This document shows positions 6,735 through 38,373 of a DNA stretch of 64,000 bases, in pieces (position 1 is the first letter of the stretch; each line of letters begins with the position of its first letter). The DNA lies in assembly GCA_905205975.1 (NCBI GenBank), contig CAJLFQ010000003.1, positions 3,130-67,129 of the forward strand, written 5' to 3'. The position numbers were made by a program, and so were the translations under genes. The DNA comes from an uncultured Eubacteriales bacterium (GTDB lineage: Bacteria > Bacillota > Clostridia > Oscillospirales > QAMX01). The notes beneath the pieces were generated by a model that did not search any database, was not told where the DNA came from, and was given only the letters and a program-made list of their open reading frames with translations.

Positions 6735-6780
6735 CCTGCCAAACCATCCGAATCTGAAACCCAAACCGAAAACACGCGCA

Positions 6781-6876: not shown

Positions 6877-6905
6877 TTGACAAACGCCGCGCGCTGTGGT
6901 AAAAT
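6877..6905 (+). promoter_or_regulatory. sigma-A promoter of metY operon
   Basis: TTGACA (6877-6882), 17-nt spacer, TGgTAAAAT extended -10 (6897-6905). Confidence 0.65.
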
Positions 6906-7085
6906 AAAACCAACCTACTAAGTTGGTGTGTAAAGAATCGAAGCAAAAGGGAGGCATTCGCATGACCAATGATTTTGAAGCGCTCGTTCGTGCGAATTTC
7001 CGGTTTGGCCGAATGTGACAGGGGAGAAAGAACCATGCGGAAGCAATCCCCCCAAAAAAACGAAGATAAGAAAGAGGTCATCCCA

Positions 7086-10266: not shown

Positions 10267-10343
10267 TGGTCGGAGTGTCGGGATTCGAACCCGAGGCCTC
10301 TTGGTCCCGAACCAAGCGCGATACCAAACTTCGCCACACCCCG
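10267..10343 (-). tRNA. tRNA-Pro (anticodon CGG), CCA encoded
   Basis: Minus-strand read: CGGGGTGTGGCGAAGTTTGGTATCGCGCTTGGTTCGGGACCAAGAGGCCTCGGGTTCGAATCCCGACACTCCGACCA. It has a 7-bp acceptor stem, anticodon stem CTTGG/CCAAG with loop TTCGGGA, and T-arm GGTTCGAATCC. A downstream hairpin plus T-run lies at about 10236-10266. An upstream TTGACA-17-TGTATCAT promoter lies at about 10375-10405. Confidence 0.92.
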
Positions 10344-18656: not shown

Positions 18657-18926
18657 GGATTCTATGCGCCTTTCTGTGCAGTCGGAATACGTTCGAACAG
18701 ATTTGCGATGTGCAGATTGGTTTATTATACCGGAGGCAGAACGGAAGTTCAATTCGTGCTTTGTAAATTTTTGTACCGGCGCCGCTGCACCGGTGCGAAA
18801 AAAACGGCATGAAGGTTTTTTCGGCAACCGGATGGGTCTTGCAAAAAAGAACCGCGTGTATTATAATAATGTATCATACCCTTCCGGTCAGCCCGGCGTA
18901 CGGCGCAGAAAACAGGAGGAACAGCC

Positions 18927-21925: not shown

Positions 21926-21938
21926 AAATGCATATATC

Positions 21939-22223
21939 GGATGCAGTGAACAAGAGGAGTAACCGCCTGAAACGATTCAGAGAAGGTGCGGCCGGTTTTC
22001 GCCGGGTGTGAGCCGCCCCATCGGGCAGGGCAGTGAAGGTCGCTTGTGAGCATTCTGTGCTGAACCGGCTGGTCGGCTGGTCGTAAGCGCAGGACGGGTG
22101 CTCCCGTTAACGGGCAGAGGTTTTTTGACCTTACTGAGTGTGCGGCGCTGCCGCAAATCTGGGTGGTACCGCGGGCTGATTTTCATGCGCCCGTCCCGAG
22201 CAATCGAGGACGGGCGCTTTTTT
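21939..22223 (+). promoter_or_regulatory. T-box riboswitch leader (probable Val, specifier GUC) with intrinsic terminator
   Basis: Conserved T-box sequence AAATCTGGGTGGTACCGCGG at 22155-22174. Terminator GCGCCCGTCC-loop-GGACGGGCGC plus T6 at 22187-22223. Stem I base helix GGATGC/GCATTC carries a GA (K-turn) motif. AGTA lies on the 5' side of the specifier loop, with an AGAGAAGG bay and distal GGTGTGA. The 3' side of the specifier loop reads GAAGGTCG (22035-22042). Confidence 0.88.
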
Positions 22224-22310
22224 ATATCTTTTTCTGCGCCATACCGCCGCTGCATCCGCCTGTCAATTCAAACGGTATGCACATGACTTATTTTGAGGGG
22301 GCTTGATTCT

Positions 22311-22868
22311 GTGTCTGACCATGTAAAGGAAATTGCCGTGCGGCTGAAAACCATGCGTGAAATTTCAGGCCTGACGGTAGAAGAAATGGGCGAACGCCTG
22401 ACCATTACGGCGGCGGAATACGCCAGAATGGAGAGCGGCGAGATCGATATTCCGGTCAGCGTTCTTTGTGAAGCGGCTGATATCTTCGGCATTTCGGTGA
22501 CTGAATTGCTGACGGGCGACCGCGCAAAACTGAAAATGTACTCCGTCGTCCGGAAAGGGCGCGGAATCGGCGTCGAACGAACGGCCGGCTATGACTATGC
22601 TTCTCTGGCACATGGCTTTGCAGAACGGCGCGTTGAGCCGCTGCTTGTCACCATCGAACCAAAAGACGATTCGACGGCGCTGCACATGAATACCCATACC
22701 GGCCATGAATTTCACTATTGTCTGGAAGGCGAAATGCGCCTGTATATCGGCGGCCATGAACTGACCATTCACGAGGGTGACTCGGTCTACTTTGATTCCA
22801 AATACCCGCACGCGATGCGCGCGCTCAACGGAAAGCCTGTGAAGCTGGTCGTCATCGTTATCAAATAA
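22311..22868 (+). CDS. XRE-family HTH regulator with C-terminal cupin domain
   Basis: 185 aa from GTG 22311 (GAGGGGG upstream). HTH region ISGLTVEEMGERLTITAAEYARMESGE. Cupin region HTGHEFHYCLEGEMRLYIGG...GDSVYFDSKYPH. Confidence 0.85.
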   Translation: MSDHVKEIAVRLKTMREISGLTVEEMGERLTITAAEYARMESGEIDIPVSVLCEAADIFGISVTELLTGDRAKLKMYSVVRKGRGIGVERTAGYDYASLAHGFAERRVEPLLVTIEPKDDSTALHMNTHTGHEFHYCLEGEMRLYIGGHELTIHEGDSVYFDSKYPHAMRALNGKPVKLVVIVIK

Positions 22869-22901: not shown

Positions 22902-24560
22902 ATGCTGATTTCTAAATTCTGCGAGACACAATTCTCTTCTTATGAAGACTTCAGGGATCGTTTCAAAATCAACGTCCCGGAGAACTTTAACTTTGCATAC
23001 GACGTTGTCGATGAACTGGCGCGGACAAAACCGGATGCACGGGCGCTGGTCTGGTGCGACGACAAAGGCAACGACAAAACGTTCACGTTTGCCGACATGA
23101 AGCGCCTGTCGGATCAGGCGGCCTCTCTGTTCACGTCGGACGGCATCCGGAAAGGCGACGTGGTCATGACGCTCCTGCGCAGCAAATACCAATACTGGAT
23201 CTGTGCGCTGGCGCTGCATAAAATCGGTGCCGTTCTGCTGCCTGCCACGCATCAGCTGATGGCGAAAGACTTGGAATACCGGTTCCGTGCGGCTTCTGTT
23301 GCGGCGGTGGTGAGCATCGATGACGAGCGGCTGACCGCTGCGATCCGGCATGCGCAGGAAAACGCGCCGTCGCTGCGCAAAAAATATGTGGTCGGCCATG
23401 CGCCGGAAGGCTTCATCGACTTTGACGCTGCATTGGCTGCGGCATCGCCGGATTTTCAGCGGCCAACCGGTGCAGAGGCGACAACGAACGAAGACCTGAT
23501 GCTGATGTACTTCACCTCCGGAACGACCGGTATGCCGAAAATGGTCGTTCACGATTTCCGGTATCCGCTCGGTCACATCCTGACGGCCAAATTCTGGCAG
23601 GATCTTCACCCCGGCGACCTGCATTTTACCCACGCGGATACGGGGTGGGCCAAGACGTCATGGGGGAAAATCTATGGCCAGTGGATCTGCGAAGCAGCGA
23701 TCTTCGTCTACGACTACGAAAACAAATTCAAACCGACCGATCTCCTGCGCGTCATCGAACAGCATAAAGTCACGGTTTTCTGTGCACCGCCGACGGTTTT
23801 CCGCTTCCTGATCAAGGCTGACATCGAGCATTATGACCTCTCCTGTCTGCGCCATTGCTGCATCGCGGGCGAACCGCTCAACGCCGAAGTCTACAATAAA
23901 TGGAAAGAAATTACCGGGCTGGAGCTGCGCGAGGGGTTTGGCCAGTCGGAAACCTGCGTTCTGATTGCAACGTTCCCGTGGATTGCGGCGAAGCCCGGCT
24001 CTACGGGGCGCCCAAGTCCGCATTTCAATGTGAAATTGCTGGGCGGCGACGGGAAAGAAGTCGAACCCGGCGATGAAGGGGAAATCTGTATCGACATCTC
24101 CCATGGCCGGCCGGCCGGTCTGACCTGCGGATATTATCATGATCCGCTCAAAACCGCAGAAATCATGTATGACGGCTGGTATCACACCGGCGATATGGCA
24201 TGGATGGATGAAGACGGATACCTCTGGTTTGTCGGCCGCGCAGACGATGTGATCAAATCCTCCGGTTACCGCATCGGGCCGTTTGAAGTCGAAAGCGCGC
24301 TGCTGGAGCATCCGAGCGTCCTGGAAGCGGCGATTACGGCGGTGCCGGACAGTGAACGCGGCCAGATCGTGAAAGCGACGGTTGTCCTTGTCCAGGGAAC
24401 CGTTCCGTCTGACGCACTGAAAAAAGAACTGCAGGATCACGTCAAACGCACAACCGCGCCGTACAAGTATCCGCGGATCATTGAATTTGTCGAGGAGATC
24501 CCGAAGACGTTCAGCGGGAAGATCAAACGTGCGGAGATCCGCAGCAAGGATAAACGCTGA
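22902..24560 (+). CDS. AMP-forming acyl-CoA synthetase (medium/short-chain, ACSM/MACS-like)
   Basis: 552 aa. AMP-binding motifs YFTSGTTGMPK, WYHTGD, GRADDVIKSSGYRIGPFEVE and PKTFSGKIKR. Confidence 0.88.
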   Translation: MLISKFCETQFSSYEDFRDRFKINVPENFNFAYDVVDELARTKPDARALVWCDDKGNDKTFTFADMKRLSDQAASLFTSDGIRKGDVVMTLLRSKYQYWICALALHKIGAVLLPATHQLMAKDLEYRFRAASVAAVVSIDDERLTAAIRHAQENAPSLRKKYVVGHAPEGFIDFDAALAAASPDFQRPTGAEATTNEDLMLMYFTSGTTGMPKMVVHDFRYPLGHILTAKFWQDLHPGDLHFTHADTGWAKTSWGKIYGQWICEAAIFVYDYENKFKPTDLLRVIEQHKVTVFCAPPTVFRFLIKADIEHYDLSCLRHCCIAGEPLNAEVYNKWKEITGLELREGFGQSETCVLIATFPWIAAKPGSTGRPSPHFNVKLLGGDGKEVEPGDEGEICIDISHGRPAGLTCGYYHDPLKTAEIMYDGWYHTGDMAWMDEDGYLWFVGRADDVIKSSGYRIGPFEVESALLEHPSVLEAAITAVPDSERGQIVKATVVLVQGTVPSDALKKELQDHVKRTTAPYKYPRIIEFVEEIPKTFSGKIKRAEIRSKDKR

Positions 24561-24878: not shown

Positions 24879-24907
24879 TTGACAAAGTGCCCCAAATAAA
24901 ATATCAT
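24879..24907 (+). promoter_or_regulatory. sigma-A promoter of the 12-kb transporter-like operon
   Basis: TTGACA (24879-24884), 17-nt spacer, TATCAT (24902-24907), within a locally AT-rich stretch. It implies a ~220-nt 5' leader. Confidence 0.55.
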
Positions 24908-25134
24908 ATAGGTAGAGTCTATTGGGCTATTTTACGATGCAATGTCGAAAAAAGAGGCATTTGTGCCGAAAAGAGATGCATTCGAGAGTTTGCACCTGTG
25001 TTCACGGGTGCAATCTTTCGAATTATTCCCTTTTTCGGATAGGGCAAAATACACAAATGCCATTTGAGACTGCCGCGGGTCGGCGGAATCGCAAAAAGTC
25101 CCAGGAAGTTATCCTGTAAGGAAAGGGTGGAAGC

Positions 25135-28100
25135 ATGCGGAGGTTTACCAGAAACGGCGAAAGCCGGAAAGTCTTCGCCAAAGCAGGCAGATCCTTCACG
25201 CGAAGCGTGGAAGTTTTGCTTGCCGCAGTGATGCTCGTGTCCGTGATGGCGGGAGCCTTGACGGCCCGTGCAGACGAGACCGAGGGAATCGGAGCGGTTG
25301 ACAAAACCGTGACCTCGAGCAATTTCAAAGAAGGCTCCTACAGCGCATACCAGAACGAGCACGCCGACAAACCCCTCTATCAGGGGGAGGATATCATTAT
25401 CCCGGCTGCCGACTACACTGACACGAATACAAACATCAAAGTTTTTGACGAATACGAGGGCGTCAAAAACGCGGTGCTCCTGAAGGACACCTCAAAGGAG
25501 CAGGAAGAAGACGAGAGCCATGGCGAATCCTCCGCGGATGGCAGCCTGGAGCTCAAGGAATATGACAAGGCCTATGTCACCTACAAAGTCAATATTCCGC
25601 AGTCTGCGATGTACGAGATCTACTTCAAGTATTTCCCGATTGAAGGCAAGGGCACTGAAATCGAACGTGAAATCATGATCGATGGCGCCTACCCCTTTAA
25701 TGAAGCGACCTACCTGGCTTTCTCCCGCATCTGGCAGGATACGGAAAAGGTCGGCACCGTCTTTGACACCGCCGGCAATGAAATCCGCCCCACCACGCAG
25801 GAAGCGCCGGAATGGACCGTGAAATATCTGAACGATGATCGCGGCTACTTCTTCAAATCGTTCCGCTTCTATCTGGAAGCCGGCGAACATGAACTCAAGA
25901 TCCTTTCCGTCAAAGAGCCGATGCTCCTTGCGGAAATCGGTCTCGGCATGAAAGACGAACCGCGGCCCTATGCGGAAGTCAAGGCCGAATACGAATCCAA
26001 AGGCTACCAGATGACCACCGGTCAAAGCGTGAAGATCGAAGCGGAAGACACGTTCCAGAAGAGCGCTTCTTCCCTCTACCCGTATCACAGCCGCGCCTCC
26101 GTCAGCACGACGGGCGTCTCCGGCAAATTTACCTATGACCATACGCAGGTCAACGTCATCGGCGGCGAACGCTGGGAGACGGCCGGCCAGTGGATTTCCT
26201 GGAAGATCACAGTCCCGGAAACCGGTCTGTACAACATCTCGGCGCGCGGCCGCCAGAACGTCAACAAGAGCATGACATCCGGCCGCTGCCTGCGCATCGA
26301 CGGTGAAATCCCGTTTGCAGAAGCGGAAAACTGCGGCTTCTTCTACAGCGCGGATTTCCGGATGTACACACTGGGCGATGAAGAAGTCGGCGAACCGTTC
26401 CTCTTCTATTTTGAAGCCGGCCGCGAATACACGATGTCCCTGCAGGTCAACCTGGGTGTCATCGAAGATCTGGCCCGCCGCCTGGATAACTCCGTGACCG
26501 AACTCATGACGGTTTACCGCCGCCTGCTGATGCTCATCGGCGCAACGCCGGATAAAGAGCGCGACTACGACTTCAAACAGGCGATGCCGAACGAGCTGAA
26601 AACCATGGCCGTTCAGGCGGACGAACTGGATTCCATTCTGAACGATATGCTTGAGGCGACCGGCGAGCGCAACTCGGATATGGCCGTTCTGGAACGTACC
26701 TCGAGACGTCTGAGAACCATGTCGGCGCACGAGCATACCATCGCCAAAAACTTTACGCAGTTCAAGAGTGATGTTTCGGCCATTGCAAACTGGATTCTTG
26801 ACCTGAACTACCAGCCCCTCGAGCTGGACTATTTCCTAATCACTTCGCCAGAAGAAAAACTGCCGAAGGCCAACGCCGGCTTCTTTGCAGGCATCGGCCA
26901 TGAGCTGCGCCTCTTCATCTCTTCGTTCACGACGGACTACACGTCAGTCGGTGCGGAAGTTTCCGCGGACGAAGCGGTGACTGTCTGGTTCGCCCCGGGC
27001 AATACGGCCGGTCAGGTCGTCGGCGGCGGCCGTGAACAGGCACAGATCCTGAAGCAGATGATCGATGACGACTTCACCGTCAATCACCCGGATGTCCCGG
27101 TCAACCTCCAGCTGATCGACCTGAGCGCACTGCTGCCGGCAACGCTGGCTGGCAAAGGCCCGGACGTCGCACTGCAAGTCGCGGGTACCAACCCGGTTCA
27201 GTACGCCATGCGCGGCGCCGTCGTCGACCTGGCGCAGTTCAGCGACTATCAGGAAGTCGCCAAACGGTTCTTCCCGAGCTCGCTGGTTCAGTTCCAGTAT
27301 CTGCAGGGCGTCTACGCACTGCCGGAAACGCAGACCTATCAGGTGATGTTCTACAGAACCGATATTATGGAAGAACTGGGTCTGGAAGTTCCGCAGACGT
27401 GGGCCGATGTCTACGACATCATTCCGGAACTGCAGAACAACTACATGAACTTCGGTTTCCCGGCCAACACAAACAACTACTACACGCTGCTCTATCAGAA
27501 CGGCGGCTCTCTCTACCGCGGCGAAGGCGAAACGCTCGGCTATGCGACCAACCTCGACTCGCAGACGGCTGTTGAATCCTTCATCTCCTACGTCGATATG
27601 TACCGCAGCTATAAGCTGGATATTCAGATCGACTTCCAGAACCGCTTCAGAACCGGTGAAGTTCCGATCGGTGTCGCCGACTTTACGACGGTGAACGCCC
27701 TGAGCGTTACGGCGCCGGAAATCCGCGGCCTGTGGAGCTTCGCGCTGGTTCCGGGTACGGAACGCACCGATGAAAACGGCAACACCTTCATTGACCGTTC
27801 TGTCGCAACAAGCGGTAACGGCTGTATCATCCTGAAGAAATCCAAACACCCGGAAAAGGCGTGGGAATTCATCAAGTGGTGGACATCCGACACGGCGCAG
27901 ACCCGTTACTGTCTCGAAGTCGAAGCAACGATGGGTGTTGCAGCCCGTATCCCGTCGGCCAACATCAACGTCATGTACAACCAGGCGTGGTCGACCGACG
28001 ATTATAAGATGCTGATGGCGCAGCGTGCATGGGCGAAGGGTATTCCGGAAGTTCCGGGCGGCTACTACACGACCCGTCACATGGATAACGCCTTCAACCG

Positions 28101-28224
28101 CACCTACACCAACAAAACAGACCCGCGTGAAACCCTGCTCGACTATATTGATGACATCAATGCTGAGCTGACCAAAAAGCGTGCTGAAATGGGCATCATT
28201 ACCGCCGATCAGATTACTAAGTAA
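25135..28224 (+). CDS. giant extracellular solute-binding protein: signal peptide + two CBM-like beta-sandwich modules + helical linker + family-1 SBP domain
   Basis: 1029 aa. N-terminal signal (LLAAVMLVSVMAGALTARA/DE) has no lipobox Cys. Two repeated module signatures: ...YEIYFKYFPIEGKGTEIEREIMIDG... and IEAEDTF...GLYNISARGRQNV...RCLRIDG. The C-terminal ~440 aa resemble CUT1 sugar-binding proteins (TVWFAPGN..., YALPETQTYQVMFYRTD, WEFIKWWTS). Confidence 0.8.
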   Translation: MRRFTRNGESRKVFAKAGRSFTRSVEVLLAAVMLVSVMAGALTARADETEGIGAVDKTVTSSNFKEGSYSAYQNEHADKPLYQGEDIIIPAADYTDTNTNIKVFDEYEGVKNAVLLKDTSKEQEEDESHGESSADGSLELKEYDKAYVTYKVNIPQSAMYEIYFKYFPIEGKGTEIEREIMIDGAYPFNEATYLAFSRIWQDTEKVGTVFDTAGNEIRPTTQEAPEWTVKYLNDDRGYFFKSFRFYLEAGEHELKILSVKEPMLLAEIGLGMKDEPRPYAEVKAEYESKGYQMTTGQSVKIEAEDTFQKSASSLYPYHSRASVSTTGVSGKFTYDHTQVNVIGGERWETAGQWISWKITVPETGLYNISARGRQNVNKSMTSGRCLRIDGEIPFAEAENCGFFYSADFRMYTLGDEEVGEPFLFYFEAGREYTMSLQVNLGVIEDLARRLDNSVTELMTVYRRLLMLIGATPDKERDYDFKQAMPNELKTMAVQADELDSILNDMLEATGERNSDMAVLERTSRRLRTMSAHEHTIAKNFTQFKSDVSAIANWILDLNYQPLELDYFLITSPEEKLPKANAGFFAGIGHELRLFISSFTTDYTSVGAEVSADEAVTVWFAPGNTAGQVVGGGREQAQILKQMIDDDFTVNHPDVPVNLQLIDLSALLPATLAGKGPDVALQVAGTNPVQYAMRGAVVDLAQFSDYQEVAKRFFPSSLVQFQYLQGVYALPETQTYQVMFYRTDIMEELGLEVPQTWADVYDIIPELQNNYMNFGFPANTNNYYTLLYQNGGSLYRGEGETLGYATNLDSQTAVESFISYVDMYRSYKLDIQIDFQNRFRTGEVPIGVADFTTVNALSVTAPEIRGLWSFALVPGTERTDENGNTFIDRSVATSGNGCIILKKSKHPEKAWEFIKWWTSDTAQTRYCLEVEATMGVAARIPSANINVMYNQAWSTDDYKMLMAQRAWAKGIPEVPGGYYTTRHMDNAFNRTYTNKTDPRETLLDYIDDINAELTKKRAEMGIITADQITK

Positions 28225-28238
28225 AGGAGGACGAGTCC

Positions 28239-29204
28239 TTGGCTGAAATCAACAAAACCGCCGGTGCGGCTCCAGCAAAGAATTCTGCGCTGAAGAACAT
28301 CGGTAAGTACTTCCAGTTCAAGTTCGGAGAGATGAAGAAAGCCCGTGCATATTACCTCTTCCTCCTTCCGTACGCCTTGATCTTCACGACATTTACGGTC
28401 ATTCCGGTTGTCGTGTCGGTCGGTCTCAGCTTTACGTCGTTCAATATGATTCAGGCGCCCCGCTTCATATTCATCGACAACTACTACCAGCTCTTCATGG
28501 TCGACGACCTGTTCCTGACCGCCATCAAGAACACCATCGTCTTCTCGGCGATTACAGGTCCTGTCGGCTACCTGATGTGCCTCTGCTTCGCATGGCTGAT
28601 CAACGAAATGCCGCCGAAGATCCGTGCCGTCATGACACTGCTCTTCTATGCACCGGCTATTTCGGGCAACAGCTACGTCATCTTCTCGTTCCTCTTCTCC
28701 GCCGATGAATACGGCTTCCTGAACTCCCGGCTTCTGAACTGGGGCTTCATCAATGAAGCAATCCCTTGGCTGAAGAGTGAGAAAACCATTCCGGCCTGCG
28801 TCATCGTGGTTATTCTGTGGCTCTCGCTTGGTACCGGCTTCCTTTCCCTGATCGCCGGTCTCCAGAGCGTCGACCATGAACTCTACGAAGCCGGCGCAAT
28901 TGACGGCATCCGCAACCGCTGGCAGGAGCTGTGGTTCATCACGCTGCCTTCCATGAAAGAACATTTGATGTTCGCCGCTGTCATGAGCATCACGGGTTCC
29001 TTCGGTATGGGCGCAGTCATCACATCCCTTGTCGGCTTCCCGAGCCCGAACTATTCCGCACATACCATTGTCCACCACCTGGAGGACTATGGTAATACAA
29101 GGTTTGAAATGGGCTATGCCTCCGCGATTGCAACGCTGCTGTTCCTGCTGATGGTCGGCGCGAACCAGCTTGTTCAGAAACTCCTCAGAAAGGTTGGTAC
29201 CTGA
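28239..29204 (+). CDS. ABC sugar permease, MalF/UgpA-like (pair 1)
   Basis: 321 aa, 6 TM, EAA loop LYEAGAIDGIRNRWQELWFITLP. Confidence 0.88.
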   Translation: MAEINKTAGAAPAKNSALKNIGKYFQFKFGEMKKARAYYLFLLPYALIFTTFTVIPVVVSVGLSFTSFNMIQAPRFIFIDNYYQLFMVDDLFLTAIKNTIVFSAITGPVGYLMCLCFAWLINEMPPKIRAVMTLLFYAPAISGNSYVIFSFLFSADEYGFLNSRLLNWGFINEAIPWLKSEKTIPACVIVVILWLSLGTGFLSLIAGLQSVDHELYEAGAIDGIRNRWQELWFITLPSMKEHLMFAAVMSITGSFGMGAVITSLVGFPSPNYSAHTIVHHLEDYGNTRFEMGYASAIATLLFLLMVGANQLVQKLLRKVGT

Positions 29205-29206
29205 TC

Positions 29207-30103
29207 ATGGAAAAGCTTGAAAAGCCGAAGAAGCGATTCCACTTCTTTAAATCCAAGGCTGGCAACCGTGTCAACCGCTCCCTTTCGGGTGACGTTGGCA
29301 TCGTAATCTTTCTGGTGTTCTTCGCGGTGATCATGGCCATCCCGCTGTACTACGCAATCGTTCAGTCGCTGAAGCCGCTGAACGAACTCTACATCTTCCC
29401 GCCGCGTATGTACGTCACCACCCCGACGATGGATAACTACGCAGACCTCTTCCGCTTGATGTCCAACTCGTGGGTTCCGTTCTCCCGCTACGTCTTCAAC
29501 ACCGTTATGATTACCGTCATCGGTACGTTCGGCCACATCATCCTCGCATCCATGGCCGCTTACCCGCTGGCGAAGTACCGGTTCCCCGGCAGTGTCGCAT
29601 TTTCGCACATTGTCCGTTTCGCCCTGATGTTCAACGCCACGGTTCTGACGATCCCGTCCTACATCATCATGGCAAAACTCGGCTGGATCGATACCTATCT
29701 TGCAGTTATTGTCCCGGCATTCGGTTCTTCACTGGGTCTGTACCTGATGCAGAACTTCATGGCGGACCTGCACGACGCCCTGTTTGACGCCGCAAAGATC
29801 GACGGCGCCAAAGAAGGCACCATCTTCTGGAAGATCGTTATGCCGAACGTCAAATCCGGCTGGCTCACCCTGATGATCTTCTCCGTGCAGAGCCTGTGGA
29901 ACACCAACAACGGTATGTACATCTACAGCGAACCGCTGAAGACCATGCCGTACGCCATCAACCAGATCACGAGCGGCGGCTATGCCCGCGCGGGCGCTGC
30001 ATCAGCCGGTGTCGTCATCATGATGCTGATCCCGATCCTCGTGTTCGTCATCTCCCAGAGCAACGTCCTTGAAACCATGCAGAAGTCCGGTATTAAAGAA
30101 TAA
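29207..30103 (+). CDS. ABC sugar permease, MalG/UgpE-like (pair 1)
   Basis: 298 aa, EAA loop LFDAAKIDGAKEGTIFWKIVMP. Starts 2 nt after the preceding stop. Confidence 0.88.
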   Translation: MEKLEKPKKRFHFFKSKAGNRVNRSLSGDVGIVIFLVFFAVIMAIPLYYAIVQSLKPLNELYIFPPRMYVTTPTMDNYADLFRLMSNSWVPFSRYVFNTVMITVIGTFGHIILASMAAYPLAKYRFPGSVAFSHIVRFALMFNATVLTIPSYIIMAKLGWIDTYLAVIVPAFGSSLGLYLMQNFMADLHDALFDAAKIDGAKEGTIFWKIVMPNVKSGWLTLMIFSVQSLWNTNNGMYIYSEPLKTMPYAINQITSGGYARAGAASAGVVIMMLIPILVFVISQSNVLETMQKSGIKE

Positions 30104-30120
30104 AAGGAGGTCGAGTCCGA

Positions 30121-31698
30121 ATGCGGAAAAGAATCGTTGCAGCGGTTATGCTGCTGCTGCTGTTCGCAGCACAGGCAGTGTCGGTCTTGGCCGCACCGCC
30201 TTCAAGGTCCTATACCTATAACACTGAGATGCTCCCGGTTGCTTCGCCGAACCCCTACACCTATAACGGCGAAATCAACGGCATCGATCAGGGTGTTGGC
30301 CGGTTCCTCGAACCGGAAGATTTTGTCGTCGATGATGACAACTTCATCTACCTGCTCGACGCCGGCAACAAACGCGTGCTTGTCTTCAATGAAAACAAGC
30401 AGATTGTCCGTGTACTCGATCACTTTGACTATAAGGGCGAAGCAATCACGCTCAAAGCCCCGCAGGGTCTGTACATCTATCAGTACTACGGCATAAAGCT
30501 GCTCTATGTTTCCGATACGGAAAACAGCCGGATCTTCCGCGTGGATCTGACCAATGAGCTGCACGGCGAAGTGGAAACCAACGCCACTGCCAAGGTCGAC
30601 CGCATGTACGGGAAACCGGTCATCGACATTATTGCCGAAGATACGCCGTACTACCCGACCAAATTCATCGTTGACCGTGCTGAACGTATTTTCGTTCTGG
30701 GTCGTACGATCAACCGCGGCGTTATCAAGCTGACGAGCGATGGTTCATTTGACTCGTTCTTCGGCGCCCCGGACGTTTCGTATTCCCTGGTCGAAAAGTT
30801 CTGGCGTATGCTTTCAACCGAAGCGCAGCGCCAAAAGAGCCTGAAATACGTCCCGACGGAATACTCCAACATCGCGCAGGATTCCCGCGGCTTTACCTAT
30901 GTGACCATCTCCACGATGGAACGCCAGAAGCTTTACAGCACGTTCAACACCAAACCGGACGATACGGATGCCCGTGCGAACAACGCAGTCATCCGGAAAC
31001 TGGCGGCAGACGGTACGGATATCCTGACCAGACGCGGCTACTTCCCGCCGGTCGGTGACCTTTCGGTTTACAACCCGACGGCTGTTGAAGCTGTTCTGGC
31101 CGGTATGTCCTCGTTTGTCGACGTCTGCATCAACGACTATGACGTTTACACGATCATTGACGACATGCGCGGCAAGGTCTTCACCTACGACAACGAAGGC
31201 AACCTGCTCTTTGTTTTCGGCGGCACCGCTACACAGTACGGGACCTTCCAGAAACCGGTCGCGGTTTCCTACTTCAAGGATAATCAGATCTGCATCCTGG
31301 ATAAACGTTCCGCATCGCTGGCGTTCTTTACGCCGACGGACTACGGCGCGTCGATCCTGGCAGCTGTCAAAGCCTACCATGACGGTGAGTATGAGCTCTC
31401 CGAAGACATGTGGGGCCGCGTCCTTGAGATGAACTCCAACATGACGCAGGCGTACGGCGGCGCAGGCAAGTCCCTGCTCCGTGCCGGCGAGTACAAACAG
31501 GCGATGGAAAATTTCCGGATCGCGAAAAATACGGAATATTATTCCAAAGCGCTTGAACAGTATCTCAGCAACCTGATCGGCAGTAAGTTCACCTACATCT
31601 TCCTGATTGTGGTTGGCCTGTTCCTGCTCTCGAAGATCTGGAAACTGATCAAGAGATTCAGACGCTTCCTCCGCGAAGGCGTCAAGAAGGTGGTGTAA
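30121..31698 (+). CDS. secreted NHL-repeat beta-propeller protein with TPR-like segment and C-terminal TM anchor
   Basis: 525 aa. Signal peptide MRKRIVAAVMLLLLFAAQAVSVLA. Recurrent NHL-like strands: FIYLLDAGNKRVLVF, LLYVSDTENSRIFRV, RIFVLGRTINRGVIKL, VYTIIDDMRGKVFTY, ICILDKRSASLAFF. TPR-like AGEYKQAMENFRIA. C-terminal TM FTYIFLIVVGLFLLSKIW followed by a K/R-rich tail. Confidence 0.7.
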   Translation: MRKRIVAAVMLLLLFAAQAVSVLAAPPSRSYTYNTEMLPVASPNPYTYNGEINGIDQGVGRFLEPEDFVVDDDNFIYLLDAGNKRVLVFNENKQIVRVLDHFDYKGEAITLKAPQGLYIYQYYGIKLLYVSDTENSRIFRVDLTNELHGEVETNATAKVDRMYGKPVIDIIAEDTPYYPTKFIVDRAERIFVLGRTINRGVIKLTSDGSFDSFFGAPDVSYSLVEKFWRMLSTEAQRQKSLKYVPTEYSNIAQDSRGFTYVTISTMERQKLYSTFNTKPDDTDARANNAVIRKLAADGTDILTRRGYFPPVGDLSVYNPTAVEAVLAGMSSFVDVCINDYDVYTIIDDMRGKVFTYDNEGNLLFVFGGTATQYGTFQKPVAVSYFKDNQICILDKRSASLAFFTPTDYGASILAAVKAYHDGEYELSEDMWGRVLEMNSNMTQAYGGAGKSLLRAGEYKQAMENFRIAKNTEYYSKALEQYLSNLIGSKFTYIFLIVVGLFLLSKIWKLIKRFRRFLREGVKKVV

Positions 31699-31701
31699 AA
31701 G

Positions 31702-32334
31702 ATGGCAGAGCTTTGGAAACAGTTGCGTTACTCAACCCATGTCATGTTCCACCCGTTTGACGGCTTCTGGGATCTGAAACACGAACACAGAGGCAGCGTG
31801 AAAGCAGCGATGGTGCTGCTGGCGATGCTGGTGCTCAACTCGATCATCAAGACGCAGTTTACCGGCTTCCTTTACAACCCGTATTATGACGGCGTCAGCC
31901 TGAACGTGTTCAGCGAACTGACATCGGTTGTCGGTACCTTCTTCCTGTGGTGCATTTCGAACTGGAGCTTGACAACCCTGATGGACGGCGAAGGCCGCTT
32001 CAGTGATATCGTGATGGTCAGTGCTTACGCGCTGGTCCCGATGTTCCTGATCGGAATTCCGCTGACCTTCCTCAGCAACGTCATGCCGCTCGATTATGCA
32101 GCATTCTACAACATCGTCTTGAGCTTCACCTACATTTGGGCTGGGTTCCTGATGTTGGCGGGTCTGATGGTTGTTCACCAGTACACCCTCGGCAAGACGC
32201 TCCTGTCGGCCATCCTGATCATTGTCGGTATGGCGGTCATCGTCTTCCTTGGTCTGTTGTTCTTCAACCTGATTTCTCAGCTGGTCGGCTTCGTTGTCGA
32301 ACTCTATTGGGAAATCTCGCTCAGATTCTTCTAA
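31702..32334 (+). CDS. Yip1-domain integral membrane protein
   Basis: 210 aa with about 5 TM helices. N-terminal HPFDGFWDLKHE motif and overall topology resemble bacterial YIP1 family proteins, from memory. Confidence 0.65.
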   Translation: MAELWKQLRYSTHVMFHPFDGFWDLKHEHRGSVKAAMVLLAMLVLNSIIKTQFTGFLYNPYYDGVSLNVFSELTSVVGTFFLWCISNWSLTTLMDGEGRFSDIVMVSAYALVPMFLIGIPLTFLSNVMPLDYAAFYNIVLSFTYIWAGFLMLAGLMVVHQYTLGKTLLSAILIIVGMAVIVFLGLLFFNLISQLVGFVVELYWEISLRFF

Positions 32335-32349
32335 AGGGGAGGTGCTTGG

Positions 32350-35304
32350 ATGAAAAAGATCAGAAAATATGCGGTAATCTGCTATATCCTCGCGCTGGCG
32401 ATGATCCTGCCGTTGAGCAGCATGGCAATTACCCCCATGAAGGAACAGTTCGTTGCTCCGGGCTATGCAGATCCTTACATCGAAGGCGCCGGAAAATCGT
32501 CGCCCCTTTCCATCGAGGTCGACCACATTCCGAACGAACGCCTGAACATCAAAGTGACGGATTCGCGCACCGGTAAAGTCTGGGAGACCAACCCGGTATA
32601 CACCGGCGGCGACAAAGCATCCACAACAGAAGACAAAAAGAAAGAGCTGCATTCGCAGATCCTTCTGACCTACACGTTTGATAAAAACGGCAACGCCGAC
32701 AAACTGGCGGATATCGGTTACATGTCTTCTGCAACGTCTGTCGGCAAATTCAACAGCTATGAGGAATCAGTCGTCAAGAACCAGCTGACCATTCAGTATG
32801 TGCTTGACAACGGTGACCTGCTGGACTATTATGTCGATGCAGACGCGCAAACACTGGAAGTCAACCAAATCCCGGCCGGCAGATCGGTCGTTGGATTCCG
32901 CGTTGGATACGGTTTCGGCGATAAGAACGCTTCGCTGTACCCGGTTATGATCACCGAGTCCCGTATGAACGAGATGCTTGATCGAATCGAGATCAAAGGC
33001 GAAGACGGAACCATTGACGAAGCCGCAACGGAAAAGATGAAAAAGAACATCCTTTCCAAATACCGTCTGACGACGCTGGAAGGCAAGCTGGAAGAAATCG
33101 AACGCCAGGTCAAACGCCAGAAGACGGAAGAAGACAAAAAGAAGAAACGCAAGGAACTGGAAGATCAGCTGAATGATTACCTTGCGAAGTACCCGGTTCT
33201 CGAAGAGGAGAACATTTACGAACTGTACAGCGACGCAACCAGCACCACGAGAAATAAAAAGCTCCTGGTCAGCTACTGGGCATCGATCCCGTACACCCGT
33301 GAAGATCTCGACTTCGATAACCAGATGATCGGCTACGAGAAATCGGCAGGCGGCGTCAGCTTTGAAATCCCGGTGCTCTATATGATCGAAGGCAGCACCT
33401 TCCGTGCGACGGTTCTGACCAGTGAAATTGACCAACCGGCTGAAGTTGGCATCACCCGTCTGGACTTCCTGCCCGGTTTTGCCGGCGCCGACGATACCGT
33501 TCTGAAAGGCTACACCCTTGTCCCGGACGGCAGCGGCTCGCTCGTTCCGATCAACAGCGAAGACCAGCGCCAGACCGGTTACCAGGTTGCTGTTATGAAC
33601 CGCCAGAAAGACGAAGGTCTTTCGATGAACTCCTCGAACATGCGCGACATCCCGTATTATGAATATACGCTGATGCCGGTGTTCGGCCAGAAGCAGGACG
33701 ATAACGCTTACTTCTGCATCATCGAAGAAGGCTATGAATTCGCAAACATCACGGCTTATGTCGCAGATAGCTTTACGAAGTATAATACGGCCTTTGCCTC
33801 ATTCTTCCCAATTGTTACCGACGATATCTACTACTCCTCCGGCAGCGAGAGCGGCATTACGATGTTCCCGAAGGTCAAAGTCGAAGAAGAGAAGATGTCG
33901 ATCAAGTACACCCGCGACCCGGATACCAAAGAAGTCTCGACTGAAGAAGTCGTTAAGAAAACGGTCAGCAACTACTGCCGTCTTCCGGCTTCCAACCTGT
34001 CCGTCCGCTATGCATTCCTCTCGGGGGATCAGGCGAACTACGTCGGTATGGCAAACTACTACCGCACGTACCTGATGAATACCTACGACATGGAAAAACG
34101 CACCAACTTCGGTGAAGACATGACGTTCTATGCCGACCTTTATGGTATCATCGACAAAAAAATCAGCTTTGCCGGCTTCCCGATCAACCGGAAGTTCGCG
34201 CTGACGACGTTTGACCAGGCTGAAGAGATTGTTCAGGCACTCTTTGATAACGGCGTCAAGGATCTGAAACTCCGTTATCTCGGCATGATCAACGGCGGCA
34301 TGAATCAGCGCTACGCCGGAAACTTCAAAGTGGAAGGCAACCTCGGCGGCAAGAAGGGCTATCAGAACTTCCTGACGAAGATGGAATCGCTCGGCGTTGA
34401 GGTTTACCCGGATATCGACGTGACGCACGTCTATCAGGACCGTATGTTTGACGGTTTCGACCCGAATGATGATACGGTCATGACACTCGGTAAAACACAG
34501 TCGATCATCTTCGACTTCAACATCGCCACCGGTATCAAAGACCCGAGAAGCGACTCCCGCTATTATCATCCGCGCTGGATCATTTCCCCGCGCCTGTACG
34601 AAGACTTGTTCGATACGCTTCAGGAAAAGCTCGACAAGTTCGGCAACAAGCATATTTCTCTGAGTACACTTGGCAGCAAGCTTTCCTCTGACTATAACGA
34701 GGATATGATCATCGACCGCGGACAGACCGCCCGCGTGGTTGCAGATCAGCTCAAACAGTATCAAGAAGCCGGCTACGACATGATCGTCGAAAAAGGTTTT
34801 GTTTATACGCTGCCGTACGTTTCCACCGTTCTGGACATCCCGCTGACCTCCAGCATGTTCACGGTTGAAATGTATGACATCCCGTTTGTTCAGCTTGTTC
34901 TGCACGGCTTGGTTGAATATGCCGGTGAACCGCTCAACCTCACGCAGGACGTTCAGTACAGCATTCTGAAATGCCTGGAGTATGGCGCTACGGTCTATGG
35001 CCGGTACATGTATCAGCCGGATACCGTCTTCCAGAATACATACTTCCTGAACCTCTTCTCGCTCAACTATCAGAGCTGGATGGATGAAACCAAAGCAGTC
35101 TACACGGCAGTCAACGAGGCCATCCGTGACGTTCAGGGGCAGTTCATGGTGAACCACGAACGTCTGGCTGACAACGTCTACCGTACGACTTACGAGAACG
35201 GCAAACAGGTAATCGTCAACTACAACACGGTTGATTACTTTGTTGAAGAACTCGGCGTTACGGTTGCAGCCAGAGGCTATTATGTAACGGGAGGTGCCCA
35301 GTAA
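32350..35304 (+). CDS. large secreted protein of unknown function (resembles what I recall being annotated DUF5696)
   Basis: 984 aa. Signal/anchor MKKIRKYAVICYILALAMILPLSSMA. A K/E-rich coiled segment (EEIERQVKRQKTEEDKKKKRKELEDQL). The C-terminal half has alternating beta/alpha-like pattern (GVKDLKLRYLGMINGGMNQ..., VEVYPDIDV). I recognise no catalytic motif. Confidence 0.6.
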   Translation: MKKIRKYAVICYILALAMILPLSSMAITPMKEQFVAPGYADPYIEGAGKSSPLSIEVDHIPNERLNIKVTDSRTGKVWETNPVYTGGDKASTTEDKKKELHSQILLTYTFDKNGNADKLADIGYMSSATSVGKFNSYEESVVKNQLTIQYVLDNGDLLDYYVDADAQTLEVNQIPAGRSVVGFRVGYGFGDKNASLYPVMITESRMNEMLDRIEIKGEDGTIDEAATEKMKKNILSKYRLTTLEGKLEEIERQVKRQKTEEDKKKKRKELEDQLNDYLAKYPVLEEENIYELYSDATSTTRNKKLLVSYWASIPYTREDLDFDNQMIGYEKSAGGVSFEIPVLYMIEGSTFRATVLTSEIDQPAEVGITRLDFLPGFAGADDTVLKGYTLVPDGSGSLVPINSEDQRQTGYQVAVMNRQKDEGLSMNSSNMRDIPYYEYTLMPVFGQKQDDNAYFCIIEEGYEFANITAYVADSFTKYNTAFASFFPIVTDDIYYSSGSESGITMFPKVKVEEEKMSIKYTRDPDTKEVSTEEVVKKTVSNYCRLPASNLSVRYAFLSGDQANYVGMANYYRTYLMNTYDMEKRTNFGEDMTFYADLYGIIDKKISFAGFPINRKFALTTFDQAEEIVQALFDNGVKDLKLRYLGMINGGMNQRYAGNFKVEGNLGGKKGYQNFLTKMESLGVEVYPDIDVTHVYQDRMFDGFDPNDDTVMTLGKTQSIIFDFNIATGIKDPRSDSRYYHPRWIISPRLYEDLFDTLQEKLDKFGNKHISLSTLGSKLSSDYNEDMIIDRGQTARVVADQLKQYQEAGYDMIVEKGFVYTLPYVSTVLDIPLTSSMFTVEMYDIPFVQLVLHGLVEYAGEPLNLTQDVQYSILKCLEYGATVYGRYMYQPDTVFQNTYFLNLFSLNYQSWMDETKAVYTAVNEAIRDVQGQFMVNHERLADNVYRTTYENGKQVIVNYNTVDYFVEELGVTVAARGYYVTGGAQ

Positions 35305-36311
35305 TGGCGGCCGATGTCAAGAAAAAAGACGGCTTTTTCTACAAAGTCAAACGGTTTATTCTGAAGGCATTGCGAATGGACCTGATGGAAAGGCGAAACC
35401 TGGCGGGCTACGTTTTCGTCCTCCCGTTCATCTTGGGCTTGCTGCTGATCTTCCTGCCGTCCATGGTGCAGTCCTTCCTCTTCAGCCGCAGTGACATCGT
35501 CATTCGTGCCGATGGTACGGGCTATGACCTCATCAGCAAAGGCTTTATCCACTATTACGACTCGTTCTTCACGGATACGGATTTCCGCATCAAGCTGGTG
35601 CATACGCTCCGCGATATCGTCATCAACCTGCCGGTTATCCTGATCTTCTCGTTCTTCATGGCACTGCTTTTGAACCGCAAGAAGTTCCCCGGAAGAACCG
35701 TGTTCCGTATCATCTTCTTCCTGCCGGTTATCATCTACACCGGTATTGCTTCCACCGCTGGTATCACCTCCGGCTCTTCCGAATTGTCTGAAGCGGCGTC
35801 GCAGGTCTTCGCAGACCCGACCATCGGCAACGAAGGGATGCAGTCCGGCGCAACCAGTATCATCGGTATGGCAATGAACATTGAAGCCATCATCTCGTCG
35901 CTCGGCTTGGGCACGACGCTGATGAACTTCATCCAGACCTCGATCAGCCGTCTGGAATGGATTATCCAGTCCTCCGGCGTTCAGATCCTCGTCTTCCTGG
36001 CCGCTCTGCAAGGCGTCCCGACTTCAATCTTTGAAGCCGCAAGCGTTGAAGGCCTGACGAGCTGGGAAATGTTCTGGAAGATCACGCTCCCGATGATCAG
36101 CCCGCAGATCCTGGTCAATACGATCTACACGGTCGTTGACTCCTTTACGAACCAGCGCTATGAGGTTCTTCCGTATATCCAGAAGATCTCATTTTCCAAC
36201 GCGGACTACGGTCTCGGGTCGGCCATGGCGTTCATCTATTTCCTCTGTACGATCATCTTGATTGGTCTGGTTTCCCTGATCATCTCGAAGTTCGTATTCT
36301 ACAACGAATAG
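35304..36311 (+). CDS. ABC sugar permease, MalF-like (pair 2)
   Basis: 335 aa, EAA loop IFEAASVEGLTSWEMFWKITLP. The ATG overlaps the preceding TAA (TAATG). Confidence 0.85.
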   Translation: MAADVKKKDGFFYKVKRFILKALRMDLMERRNLAGYVFVLPFILGLLLIFLPSMVQSFLFSRSDIVIRADGTGYDLISKGFIHYYDSFFTDTDFRIKLVHTLRDIVINLPVILIFSFFMALLLNRKKFPGRTVFRIIFFLPVIIYTGIASTAGITSGSSELSEAASQVFADPTIGNEGMQSGATSIIGMAMNIEAIISSLGLGTTLMNFIQTSISRLEWIIQSSGVQILVFLAALQGVPTSIFEAASVEGLTSWEMFWKITLPMISPQILVNTIYTVVDSFTNQRYEVLPYIQKISFSNADYGLGSAMAFIYFLCTIILIGLVSLIISKFVFYNE

Positions 36312-36323
36312 GAGTGTGTGAAC

Positions 36324-37289
36324 ATGGAAAAAGTAGTCAAGAATCATACAACTACCTATCGTGAGACAACGAAAGGCGAACGTGCAAAAGCCAAATATCT
36401 GTCTTGGCGTTTTGTCGCGACGATCTTTGGGAACATCTTTGCGTACGTTCTGACCATTGGTATCGCATTCGTCATCATCTACCCGCTGCTTCGCCGTATC
36501 GGCAACGCGTTCAAACCGGTTGAAGAGTTCTACGATACCTCAATCGTTTACTTCCCCAGAAACCCAACCTTTGAGGTTGTGCGTCAGGCTTTCTACAGAC
36601 TGAACTTCAAGCAAGTTGGTATCCCGTCCTTCCTGATGGCGCTGTACGTCGGCCTGACACAGATGGTCGTCGCACTGCTCGTCGGTTACGGGTTTGCCCG
36701 TTTCAAGTTCAGAGGCTCCAGAGTTCTGTTTGCGTGCGTGATTCTGACGCTGGTCGTTCCGCCGCAGACGATTTTGATCCCGCTGTACCTGCGCTTCCGT
36801 TATTTCGATATCCTCGGGATTTTCAAAGCCATTACCGGCCACTCTCTGAAGCTGATCGATACCTACTGGTGTCAGATCCTGCTTTCAGCAACCGGTCTCG
36901 GCTGGAAGAACGGCTTGTACATCTACTTGATGCGCCAGTACTTCCGCGGCGTCCCGAAGGCGCTGGAAGAAGCGGCCTACATCGACGGCGCACGGACGTT
37001 TAAGGCGTTTGTGAAGATCATGGTGCCGTCCGCACTCCCGATGATGCTGACGGTTTTCCTCTTCTCCTTCTCCTGGCAGTGGACGGATACGTTCTACACC
37101 GGCACCTTCCTCATCAAGAAGAAGCTGCTGGCGACGAGCGTCAACGCGATTACGCATGAAAATGAGCTGATGGCATTCAACCTCCAGCAGACGGCTATCC
37201 TCATCATCCTGATCCCGCTGATCTTCCTGTTCGTTGTCACACAGCGTTACTTCGTCGAAGGTATCGAACGTTCCGGCTTGACCGGCTGA
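36324..37289 (+). CDS. ABC sugar permease, MalG-like (pair 2)
   Basis: 321 aa from the ATG at 36324 (track ORF starts at GTG 36318). EAA loop LEEAAYIDGARTFKAFVKIMVP. Confidence 0.85.
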   Translation: MEKVVKNHTTTYRETTKGERAKAKYLSWRFVATIFGNIFAYVLTIGIAFVIIYPLLRRIGNAFKPVEEFYDTSIVYFPRNPTFEVVRQAFYRLNFKQVGIPSFLMALYVGLTQMVVALLVGYGFARFKFRGSRVLFACVILTLVVPPQTILIPLYLRFRYFDILGIFKAITGHSLKLIDTYWCQILLSATGLGWKNGLYIYLMRQYFRGVPKALEEAAYIDGARTFKAFVKIMVPSALPMMLTVFLFSFSWQWTDTFYTGTFLIKKKLLATSVNAITHENELMAFNLQQTAILIILIPLIFLFVVTQRYFVEGIERSGLTG

Positions 37290-37320
37290 TTCTGTACACG
37301 TCGGCGCAAAACAAACCACA

Positions 37321-37355
37321 AAACGGCGCTCGGCCTGCTTGGCCGGGCGCCGTTT
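37321..37355 (+). terminator. intrinsic terminator closing the 12-kb operon
   Basis: 12-bp GC-rich stem CGGCGCTCGGCC / GGCCGGGCGCCG followed by TTT. Confidence 0.7.
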
Positions 37356-37380
37356 GGCATACAGCCGGGAAAAAGAGGGT

Positions 37381-37410
37381 TTGACGCAGAGATACCGTTT
37401 GTGATATAAT
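37381..37410 (+). promoter_or_regulatory. sigma-A promoter of zapA-maf-mreCD cluster
   Basis: TTGACG (37381-37386), 18-nt spacer, TGaTATAAT (37402-37410). Confidence 0.65.
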
Positions 37411-37456
37411 AAAAGATGGAAAATCTTATGCCGATCGTCAAAGGAGTGATGAGCGG

Positions 37457-37789
37457 ATGGCAAACCGCGTAACAATTCAAATTTGCGGGACCTCATTTGC
37501 GCTGCTGGCGGATGAGTCGCCCGAATATGTTCAAAAATTAGCAGAATACCTGGATGCCCGCTGCCCGGCAGGCGACGGAACGCCTCAGATGACAGCGCTT
37601 GTCCTGGGCGGCTTGGCTGCTGTGGAAGAGCTTTTTCAAACACGGGAAAAATCAAAAGAAACCGAAGCGCAGATCCGGACCTATGAAGCGGAAACCGTTC
37701 GTCTCCGCAGCGAACTGGCGGCGCTGAAACGGGAACTCTCTTACCGGGAAACGCAGCAGCGCACCCAACCGGAAGGCGGCAACACATGA
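37457..37789 (+). CDS. zapA: cell division protein ZapA
   Basis: 110 aa. MANRVTIQICGTSFALLADESPEYVQKLAEYLD is typical of ZapA, followed by a C-terminal coiled coil. Confidence 0.8.
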   Translation: MANRVTIQICGTSFALLADESPEYVQKLAEYLDARCPAGDGTPQMTALVLGGLAAVEELFQTREKSKETEAQIRTYEAETVRLRSELAALKRELSYRETQQRTQPEGGNT

Positions 37790-38373
37790 CGCCAATCATT
37801 CTGGCCTCCAAATCGCCGCGAAGAGCAGAACTGATGCAGCAGATCGGGCTGCCGTTTACGGTTTGTCCGGCGGATGCCGATGAATCGGTTACGCCGGAGC
37901 TGTCGCCTGCAGAAGCGGTTGCAGAAATCTCAAAGCGGAAGGCGCTGGCGGTTCGAAAAATGCGGGATGCGGGGGATGTGATTGTCGCCTGCGATACCGT
38001 TGTGGCGCTGGATCACCGGATCTTCGGCAAACCGCATACGGCGGAAGAGGCAGAGGCCATGCTGCACCTGCTGTCCGGCCGTACCCATTCCGTTTTTTCA
38101 GGTCTGACGGTCTGCTGCGGCACAGCCGTGACTTCGGCTGTGGAATGCACCGACGTGACGTTCCGTACGCTCTCTGATGCGGAAATCACTGCATATGTGA
38201 AAAGCGGAGAACCCATGGACAAGGCCGGCGCCTACGGCATTCAGGGACTTGGCGCTGTGCTGGTTGAACGCATTGCCGGCGATTATTTCAATGTCGTCGG
38301 TCTGCCGCTCTGCCGCCTTGCACAGATGCTGTGCCCGTTTGGTATCCGGATTCTGAAATCTGTGGACTGTTGA
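37786..38373 (+). CDS. maf: Maf-like nucleoside triphosphate pyrophosphatase (septum formation protein)
   Basis: 195 aa. ILASKSPRR.ELM, DTVV, and KAGAYGIQG motifs. ATGA overlap with zapA. Confidence 0.9.
   Translation: MTPIILASKSPRRAELMQQIGLPFTVCPADADESVTPELSPAEAVAEISKRKALAVRKMRDAGDVIVACDTVVALDHRIFGKPHTAEEAEAMLHLLSGRTHSVFSGLTVCCGTAVTSAVECTDVTFRTLSDAEITAYVKSGEPMDKAGAYGIQGLGAVLVERIAGDYFNVVGLPLCRLAQMLCPFGIRILKSVDC

Follow-up and report, generated by a model that had tools for sequence, protein, structure and literature searches.

In Bacteroidota, glycans are handled by Sus-like systems, in which SusCD operates with surface glycan-binding proteins and glycosidases. For Gram-positive bacteria, a polysaccharide utilization locus (gpPUL) has been defined by the presence of a degrading enzyme, a transporter and a regulator (Sheridan et al. 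2016, PMC5320581). Here we analyse an eight-gene cassette at positions 25135-37289 of a 64-kb stretch of DNA from an uncultured Eubacteriales bacterium (contig CAJLFQ010000003.1; the whole stretch is referred to below as the window). On balance, we favour the view that the cassette is a conserved Gram-positive module for the capture, cleavage and import of a glycan, with two translocons and a membrane scaffold, and that its eight genes form one transcription unit; our moderate confidence applies to this reading as a whole. A literature search found no description of the cassette.

Like gpPULs, the cassette pairs a carbohydrate ATP-binding cassette (ABC) importer with an extracytoplasmic glycosidase-like protein, the ATPase presumably acting in trans. 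It differs from them in its fixed eight-gene core with two permease pairs, in a solute-binding protein (SBP) of ~1000 aa that is not a lipoprotein and carries domains resembling carbohydrate-binding modules (CBMs) as well as a helical bundle, in an NHL-TPR-Yip1 membrane component, and in that its only enzyme candidate comes from an uncharacterised family, DUF5696. Measured against the gpPUL definition, the transport system is present and the regulator is absent from the locus in the window, although found in other genomes; as to the enzyme, DUF5696 has a predicted glycosidase fold and no Pfam glycoside hydrolase (GH) match. The features that the cassette would have in common with Sus systems are capture at the surface by CBM-like domains, a limited degree of cleavage outside the cell and dedicated import of oligosaccharides, all encoded in one locus. 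Cells that carry it, however, have no outer membrane, and ABC permeases stand in place of the TonB-dependent transporter; to our knowledge there is no homology between the two.

Gene order and conservation of the cassette

The operon consists of eight tightly packed, co-directional open reading frames (ORFs) on the + strand, four of which encode transporter transmembrane domains (TMDs):

25135-28224, + strand: giant SBP, 1029 aa
28239-29204, + strand: permease 1a (P1a), 321 aa, MalF/UgpA-like TMD with an EAA motif at aa 217
29207-30103, + strand: permease 1b (P1b), 298 aa, MalG/UgpE-like TMD with an EAA-type motif at aa 194
30121-31698, + strand: NHL/TPR/transmembrane protein, 525 aa
31702-32334, + strand: Yip1 protein, 210 aa
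32350-35304, + strand: DUF5696 protein, 984 aa
35304-36311, + strand: permease 2a (P2a), 335 aa, MalF/UgpA-like TMD with an EAA motif at aa 244
36318 or 36324-37289, + strand: permease 2b (P2b), 323 or 321 aa, MalG-like TMD with an EAA motif at aa 218

A first-pass annotation of the window, made from the sequence alone, had counted nine genes here; this is an error, its own list and its seven junctions also giving eight. The tight co-directional packing that it described is confirmed, with gaps of 14, 2, 17, 3, 15, -1 and 6 or 12 nt. The -1 gap is a TAATG overlap between the DUF5696 gene and P2a, and the two values for the last gap reflect the start of P2b, which may be the ATG at 36324; the gene caller used for public assemblies picks the ATG giving 321 aa. 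All eight starts are preceded by a Shine-Dalgarno-like GGAGG or AAGG.

The order SBP-TMD-TMD-NHL-Yip1-DUF5696-TMD-TMD recurs in the 39 related loci examined, as far as each contig extends, and DUF5696 identity among them falls to ~23%. Loci were found by a genome scan with a DUF5696 alignment of closer sequences, the 31-sequence alignment having no conserved stretches, and phmmer was run with the eight window proteins. The scan gave 29 loci, from metagenome-assembled genomes (MAGs) of Oscillospiraceae and other Clostridia, from Paenibacillus, Cohnella, Bacillus and Amphibacillus, and also from Tissierellaceae, Clostridiaceae and Spirochaetales MAGs. In every scanned locus but one the gene order is the same as far as the contig extends. 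It holds too in five remote DUF5696 loci (~23-28% identity; the fifth is partial) and in three loci found with the SBP as starting point, namely those of Anaerocolumna cellulosilytica, an Acholeplasmataceae MAG and Paenibacillus cellulosilyticus. The accessory genes are thus co-conserved with the permeases, in the same order, across related genomes. Together with the fusion of the NHL-TPR and Yip1 proteins seen in some loci (see below), this shared order bears out, at the level of co-inheritance, the earlier proposal that the genes are one unit and not an accidental juxtaposition.

In the exceptional locus, L021 from a Bacillota MAG, phmmer finds no match to the window SBP, P1a or P1b ahead of the NHL-Yip1 gene. 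That space is filled by an ORF of 889 aa (4881-7550, + strand), so L021 may represent a variant cassette architecture.

The pairing of a single SBP with two permease pairs, which the first-pass annotation had singled out, holds for the clade of the window but not elsewhere: at least 19 loci add a second SBP. This second protein is of normal size and its gene adjoins the cassette, just upstream of the giant SBP gene or just downstream of P2b (L013, L035 and L038 versus L011-L029, L036 and L037), which hints that the optional second SBP serves the second permease pair. Several loci also have a GntR/LacI/AraC-type regulator; the Oscillospiraceae clade to which the window belongs has neither this nor a second SBP.

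Domain content and predicted folds of the cassette proteins

The statement that the locus contains no recognisable glycoside hydrolase is in substance mistaken. Pfam assigns the 984-aa protein to the family DUF5696 (PF18952; E 2e-160, 535.7 bits against a cut-off of 25.6); the protein carries a signal peptide and has a GH129/GH101-like predicted fold. Its AlphaFold2 model (predicted local distance difference test score, pLDDT, 85.6) comprises an N-terminal beta-sandwich, a TIM barrel and a C-terminal beta-sandwich, the architecture of GH129 and GH101 enzymes. Foldseek ranks the model closest to ZgGH129 (5opq; E 8e-29, target TM-score (TMt) 0.70) and NagBb (~1e-22), followed by GH101 (~1e-14) and then GH31, GH36 and GH13. 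The three-domain fold with a GH13-like (beta/alpha)8 barrel that is expected of GH129 is found in the DUF5696 model (top matches 5opq, 8rzk and 5wzn; TMt 0.64-0.70), as it is in the NagBb alpha-N-acetylgalactosaminidase (5wzn), the ZgGH129 3,6-anhydro-D-galactosidase (5opq) and the GH101 endo-alpha-N-acetylgalactosaminidases.

At the level of sequence the relationship is remote. The DUF5696 family profile finds GH129 sequences in the PDB as partial matches (E 2e-9 to 6e-8), and a barrel-only sub-profile aligns with NagBb 295-372 (E 1e-6) while also giving spurious matches to PPR repeats. The likeness lies in profile-level similarity over barrel strands 1-3 and in the placement of D781 roughly at the position expected of the nucleophile. 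DUF5696 differs from GH129 and GH101 in an extra helical insertion of ~125 aa (aa ~203-330) and in its context, an ABC cassette as opposed to a mucin or carrageenan locus. Pfam finds neither GH129 nor GH101 in it, and structural alignments show 10-14% identity. CAZy families are defined by sequence. Because no single member matches any Pfam GH family, we regard DUF5696 as a distant relative and not a member of GH129; it is at most that or a separate family, and is a candidate new glycoside hydrolase family.

Several acidic and polar residues are kept across 161 diverse DUF5696 members: D393, which sits in a VPDGSG motif, in 153, D781 in 144, R790 in 153, N863 in 160 and E877 in 158. E/D596 is also among the conserved candidates. 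E814 lies 33 residues after D781, close to the 32 that separate D764 from E796 in SpGH101 (residues from PDB titles). The family itself is large, with 4346 representatives (50%-identity clusters) at E<=1e-3 and 2163 at E<=1e-30. Our literature search found no paper that mentions DUF5696 or PF18952. The earlier description of the accessory proteins as being of unknown role stands in this respect, and the 984-aa protein proved to belong to an uncharacterised family, not to a known hydrolase family; no known polysaccharide locus was matched in the literature.

The giant SBP had been called correctly as a binding protein. The Pfam SBP_bac_1 match (E 5e-27) covers only aa 636-922 of its 1029 aa, and Pfam and NCBIfam agree on a domain of the carbohydrate uptake transporter 1 (CUT1) type, so that the extracytoplasmic SBP_bac_1/8-family binding protein expected of a CUT1 importer is present. 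In the AlphaFold2 model (pLDDT 84.6), an N-terminal transmembrane or signal helix (15-41) is followed by two beta-sandwiches (87-271 and 298-439), a four-helix bundle (443-558) and the C-terminal SBP domain (615-1029); the N-terminal extension of ~570 residues thus consists of a predicted transmembrane helix, two beta-sandwiches and a helical bundle. A fold search with the whole model matched the SBP domain only, with no structural match for the N-terminal domains. The best matches are oligosaccharide SBPs (for example 5ysf, E 7e-20), and the domain resembles binders of sophoro-oligosaccharide, cycloalternan, maltodextrin and manno-oligosaccharide. In homologues, the beta-sandwich region gives borderline matches to CBM_35, Golvesin_C and GH115_C, and on the models the sandwiches may be described as borderline CBM6/35-like.

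Ordinary Gram-positive SBPs are lipoproteins. The window SBP has no lipobox, and a loose lipobox-like cysteine motif occurs in only 3 of 54 family members inspected; most of the giant SBPs carry an N-terminal hydrophobic helix or signal peptide instead. Since the lipobox cysteine is mostly absent, the giant SBPs are probably anchored or secreted in a manner unlike that of ordinary SBP lipoproteins.

All four permeases match BPD_transp_1 and carry the EAA motif, confirming the two MalF/MalG-like pairs of the first-pass annotation. They match UgpA, UgpE, MalF and MalG models, and the two permeases of a CUT1 importer are accordingly present twice. The pairs are 23-24% identical to each other (P2a versus P1a, 23%), and the origin of one from the other by recent duplication of a single transporter was rejected on these values. 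P2a has a Ser/Gly/Thr-rich insertion of ~70 residues (aa ~150-220) that splits its BPD_transp_1 and NCBIfam matches. By analogy with the P2 loop of MalF, this insertion may be a loop on which a large extracytoplasmic partner docks.

No cognate MalK/MsmX-like nucleotide-binding subunit of a CUT1 importer is encoded within the 64-kb window, in line with the claim that the locus has none; an LSGGQ signature occurs only in a MacB-like ATPase-FtsX fusion. What does not hold is the view of this absence as a departure from a canonical importer. CUT1 importers of Firmicutes commonly share an MsmX or MsmK ATPase encoded elsewhere (B. subtilis MsmX, S. pneumoniae MsmK), so that a locus without one is normal for their sugar importers (PMC7658222), and by the same analogy the ATPase is expected to be supplied in trans here.

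The NHL and Yip1 domains are both supported by Pfam (NHL repeat, E 2e-11; Yip1, E 9e-17), the TPR matches being weak. The NHL protein has the layout of a type I membrane protein, with a signal peptide, an NHL beta-propeller, a TPR region and a C-terminal transmembrane helix. Sequence matches in the PDB place NHL domains at aa 55-119 and 347-406 and the TPR region at aa 415-483, and two stretches, aa 5-23 and 485-503, are hydrophobic. The Yip1 protein is a member of PF04893 (61.9 bits against a gathering cut-off of 28.6) and is polytopic, with at least four hydrophobic segments. A domain-level check of 34 loci finds NHL-TPR and Yip1 joined in a single ORF of ~690 aa in 14 of them, with confirmation by Pfam. 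This fusion fits the topology, the C-terminal transmembrane helix and cytoplasmic tail of the one running into the cytoplasmic N terminus of the other. A bacterial Yip1 protein that works with an ABC transporter has a single precedent, YknW, an accessory subunit of the Bacillus exporter YknWXYZ (PMC4887032). The two systems have in common a Yip1-domain membrane protein encoded, and in YknW working, with an ABC transporter. YknYZ, however, is a MacB-type exporter that acts with the adaptor YknX and protects against the SDP toxin, whereas the cassette has the permeases of a type I sugar importer, and its Yip1 protein, unlike YknW, is coupled to an extracellular NHL-TPR domain.

Flanking sequence and neighbouring genes

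The following features lie upstream and downstream of the cassette:

10270-10343, - strand: tRNA gene (Rfam RF00005, 64.6 bits)
16095-18827, - strand: MacB-like ABC ATPase-FtsX fusion, 910 aa, the only ABC ATPase in the window
18927-20981, + strand: GH92 alpha-mannosidase-family gene, 4 kb upstream of the cassette
21937-22201, + strand: T-box leader (RF00230, 95 bits)
22293-22868, + strand: helix-turn-helix (HTH)-cupin gene, directly downstream of the T-box leader, in a separate T-box-led unit
22902-24560, + strand: AMP-binding enzyme gene, in the same T-box-led unit as the HTH-cupin gene
24879-24907, + strand: predicted sigma-70-type promoter, TTGACA-17-TATCAT, 11/12 consensus positions
24908-25134, + strand: 5' leader of ~230 nt with conserved sequence blocks, for example ATACACAAA
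37322-37354, + strand: terminator-like G+C-rich hairpin of 14 bp followed by TTTGG, within an 81-nt fold

The promoter at 24879 had been noted in the first-pass annotation, and its score of 11/12 is now joined by comparative evidence: neither hexamer varies among six orthologous loci whose upstream regions otherwise diverge strongly, and for this reason the element is very probably a real promoter. The leader contains a hairpin at ~24984-25019 followed by a T run at ~25030-25036. In an RNAalifold analysis of the six leader sequences, a helix forms at columns 79-120 with a few compensatory changes and a weak energy of -5.1 kcal/mol. An Rfam scan gave no match to the leader, and no CcpA cre site was found in either promoter or leader. 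The hairpin and T run are possibly an attenuator or a new cis-regulatory RNA. At the other end, where a strong terminator had been placed at 37321, a strong hairpin follows the last stop codon (81-nt fold, -38.8 kcal/mol, z -4.97), but its T tract, TTTGG, is weak and a consensus terminator scan did not list it.

That the locus has no regulator is accurate for the interval between promoter and terminator; an HTH-cupin gene nevertheless lies 2.3 kb upstream, and most versions of the cassette outside the Oscillospiraceae have a LacI/GntR/AraC-type regulator next to it. The HTH-cupin and AMP-binding genes are an unusual cargo for a T-box. Synteny with the cassette extends to both genes, which lie on its upstream side: eight Oscillospiraceae or other Clostridia loci have the AMP-binding gene there, and seven have the HTH-cupin gene. 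Downstream of the cassette in the window are zapA, maf, mreC, mreD and the gene for PBP2. The genes that flank the window cassette are unrelated to it.

Carbohydrate-active enzyme (CAZyme) genes near the cassette in other genomes encode GH31 (three times), GH38, GH18, GH20-like, GH16, GH43, GH9 and GH106-like proteins. In a subset of Paenibacillus only, the cassette is followed by genes for CBM9, transglutaminase-like, GH18, GH20-like and GH38 proteins. This set has a mannose/N-glycan-like theme, and the window itself has GH92.

The base composition of the cassette differs from that of its surroundings. Over 26000-38000 the GC skew is negative (-0.01 to -0.12) despite the + strand genes, the flanks being positive, and G+C is a few percent lower, at 0.51-0.54 against ~0.56-0.60. 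These shifts may reflect either membrane-protein composition or an old horizontal acquisition.

Proposed function, alternatives and significance

We infer how the cassette might work, that is, the activity of its enzyme, the pairing of SBPs with permeases and their physical assembly, from predicted fold, domain content, operon structure and co-conservation. The giant SBP, tethered to the membrane, would use its CBM-like domains to retain a polymer or a large oligosaccharide at the surface of the cell. DUF5696 would be a retaining glycosidase that cuts or trims this polymer, probably at alpha linkages as its structural relatives do. The products would bind the C-terminal SBP domain, and the small second SBP where there is one, and would enter through two distinct permease heterodimers, both powered in trans by an MsmX/MsmK-type ATPase that they share and whose gene lies elsewhere. 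The NHL-TPR and Yip1 proteins would hold enzyme and SBP beside the translocons, in the role of a scaffold or co-receptor in the membrane. The first-pass annotation had likewise suggested a surface complex that feeds two channels. From its reading the conserved unit survives; the missing ATPase is unremarkable, a hydrolase-like protein is present after all and the shortage of SBPs is specific to the clade.

Several points weigh against the proposal that the cassette captures, cleaves and imports a glycan. A Pfam scan (E<=1) gave no GH family match in any of 31 DUF5696 members. The catalytic residues of GH129 and GH101 have no assigned counterparts in DUF5696, the HMMER alignment covering only barrel strands 1-3. 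By spacing, E814 is the strongest candidate for the acid/base, yet the position holds an acidic residue in only 90 of the 161 members, and D781 is replaced by Asn in 13. The CBM label comes solely from short borderline Pfam matches in homologues and from predicted beta-sandwiches. The single SBP for two permease pairs in the window's clade is left unexplained by the model, and the flanking CAZymes differ between genomes, so that no one substrate is indicated.

The residue data and the missing Pfam GH match would also fit a non-catalytic pseudo-glycosidase, with a glycan-binding or structural role, in a cassette that only binds and imports pre-formed oligosaccharides, an explanation that we think unlikely though worth serious attention. 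DUF5696 would then be a receptor or delivery protein for the second permease pair, as its gene occupies the usual position of an SBP, directly upstream of that pair with a 1-nt overlap, in a clade that has no second SBP. Yet D393, D781, E877, N863 and R790 are kept in ~90-99% of the 161 members, as is typical of an active site, the entire three-domain GH129/GH101 architecture is retained, and in at least 19 loci a conventional second SBP could serve the second pair. We give somewhat less credence still to a cassette that recycles glycans from the envelope or matrix of its own cell (exopolysaccharide, wall polysaccharide or peptidoglycan-linked glycan) in place of an external polysaccharide. 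The window cassette lies immediately upstream of zapA-maf-mreC-mreD-PBP2 and has no dedicated regulator, that of the Acholeplasmataceae MAG is flanked by Amidase_2, GHL10 and NamZ genes, and the diversity of the CAZymes around the cassette points to no particular dietary substrate. Cell-shape genes, however, adjoin it only in the closest relatives (L001-L004); elsewhere it is accompanied by LacI/GntR/AraC regulators and by genes for catabolic enzymes of GH31, GH38, GH16 and GH43, and the SBP domain resembles binders of nutrient oligosaccharides. That two unrelated ABC importers and three unrelated genes are merely side by side is highly improbable, and the conservation seen in these sequences already contradicts it. 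The permease pairs, at 23-24% identity, could serve different substrates, and a promoter-like site lies within the operon at 32804, although such sites are within chance expectation. Against this stand the identical order across several classes and phyla in spite of DUF5696 identities as low as ~23%, the NHL-Yip1 fusion and the gaps of -1 to 17 nt.

Within the favoured reading, of a module for glycan capture, cleavage and import, the cassette might go further and be the Gram-positive counterpart of the Bacteroidota 'utilisome', a stable surface supercomplex in which an NHL-TPR-Yip1 scaffold would join the membrane-tethered, CBM-bearing SBP and DUF5696, as a glycosidase of a new family, to two different ABC translocons. 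We put this forward tentatively and consider it doubtful. If true, it would mean that capture of a polymer, its cleavage and the import of two classes of product are coupled in one machine.

The capture and import of glycans by Gram-positive bacteria of gut and soil are far less understood than the Sus paradigm of Bacteroidota. The cassette is a fixed and widespread module, DUF5696 alone having more than 4000 clusters at 50% identity, and its giant, CBM-bearing, non-lipoprotein SBP would be an unusual binding protein. For the NHL-Yip1 component, this is the first role in sugar import to be proposed for bacterial proteins of this kind. Since organisms in culture carry the cassette (Anaerocolumna cellulosilytica, Paenibacillus cellulosilyticus and many further species of Paenibacillus and Cohnella), these hypotheses are directly testable by genetics, transcriptomics and enzymology.

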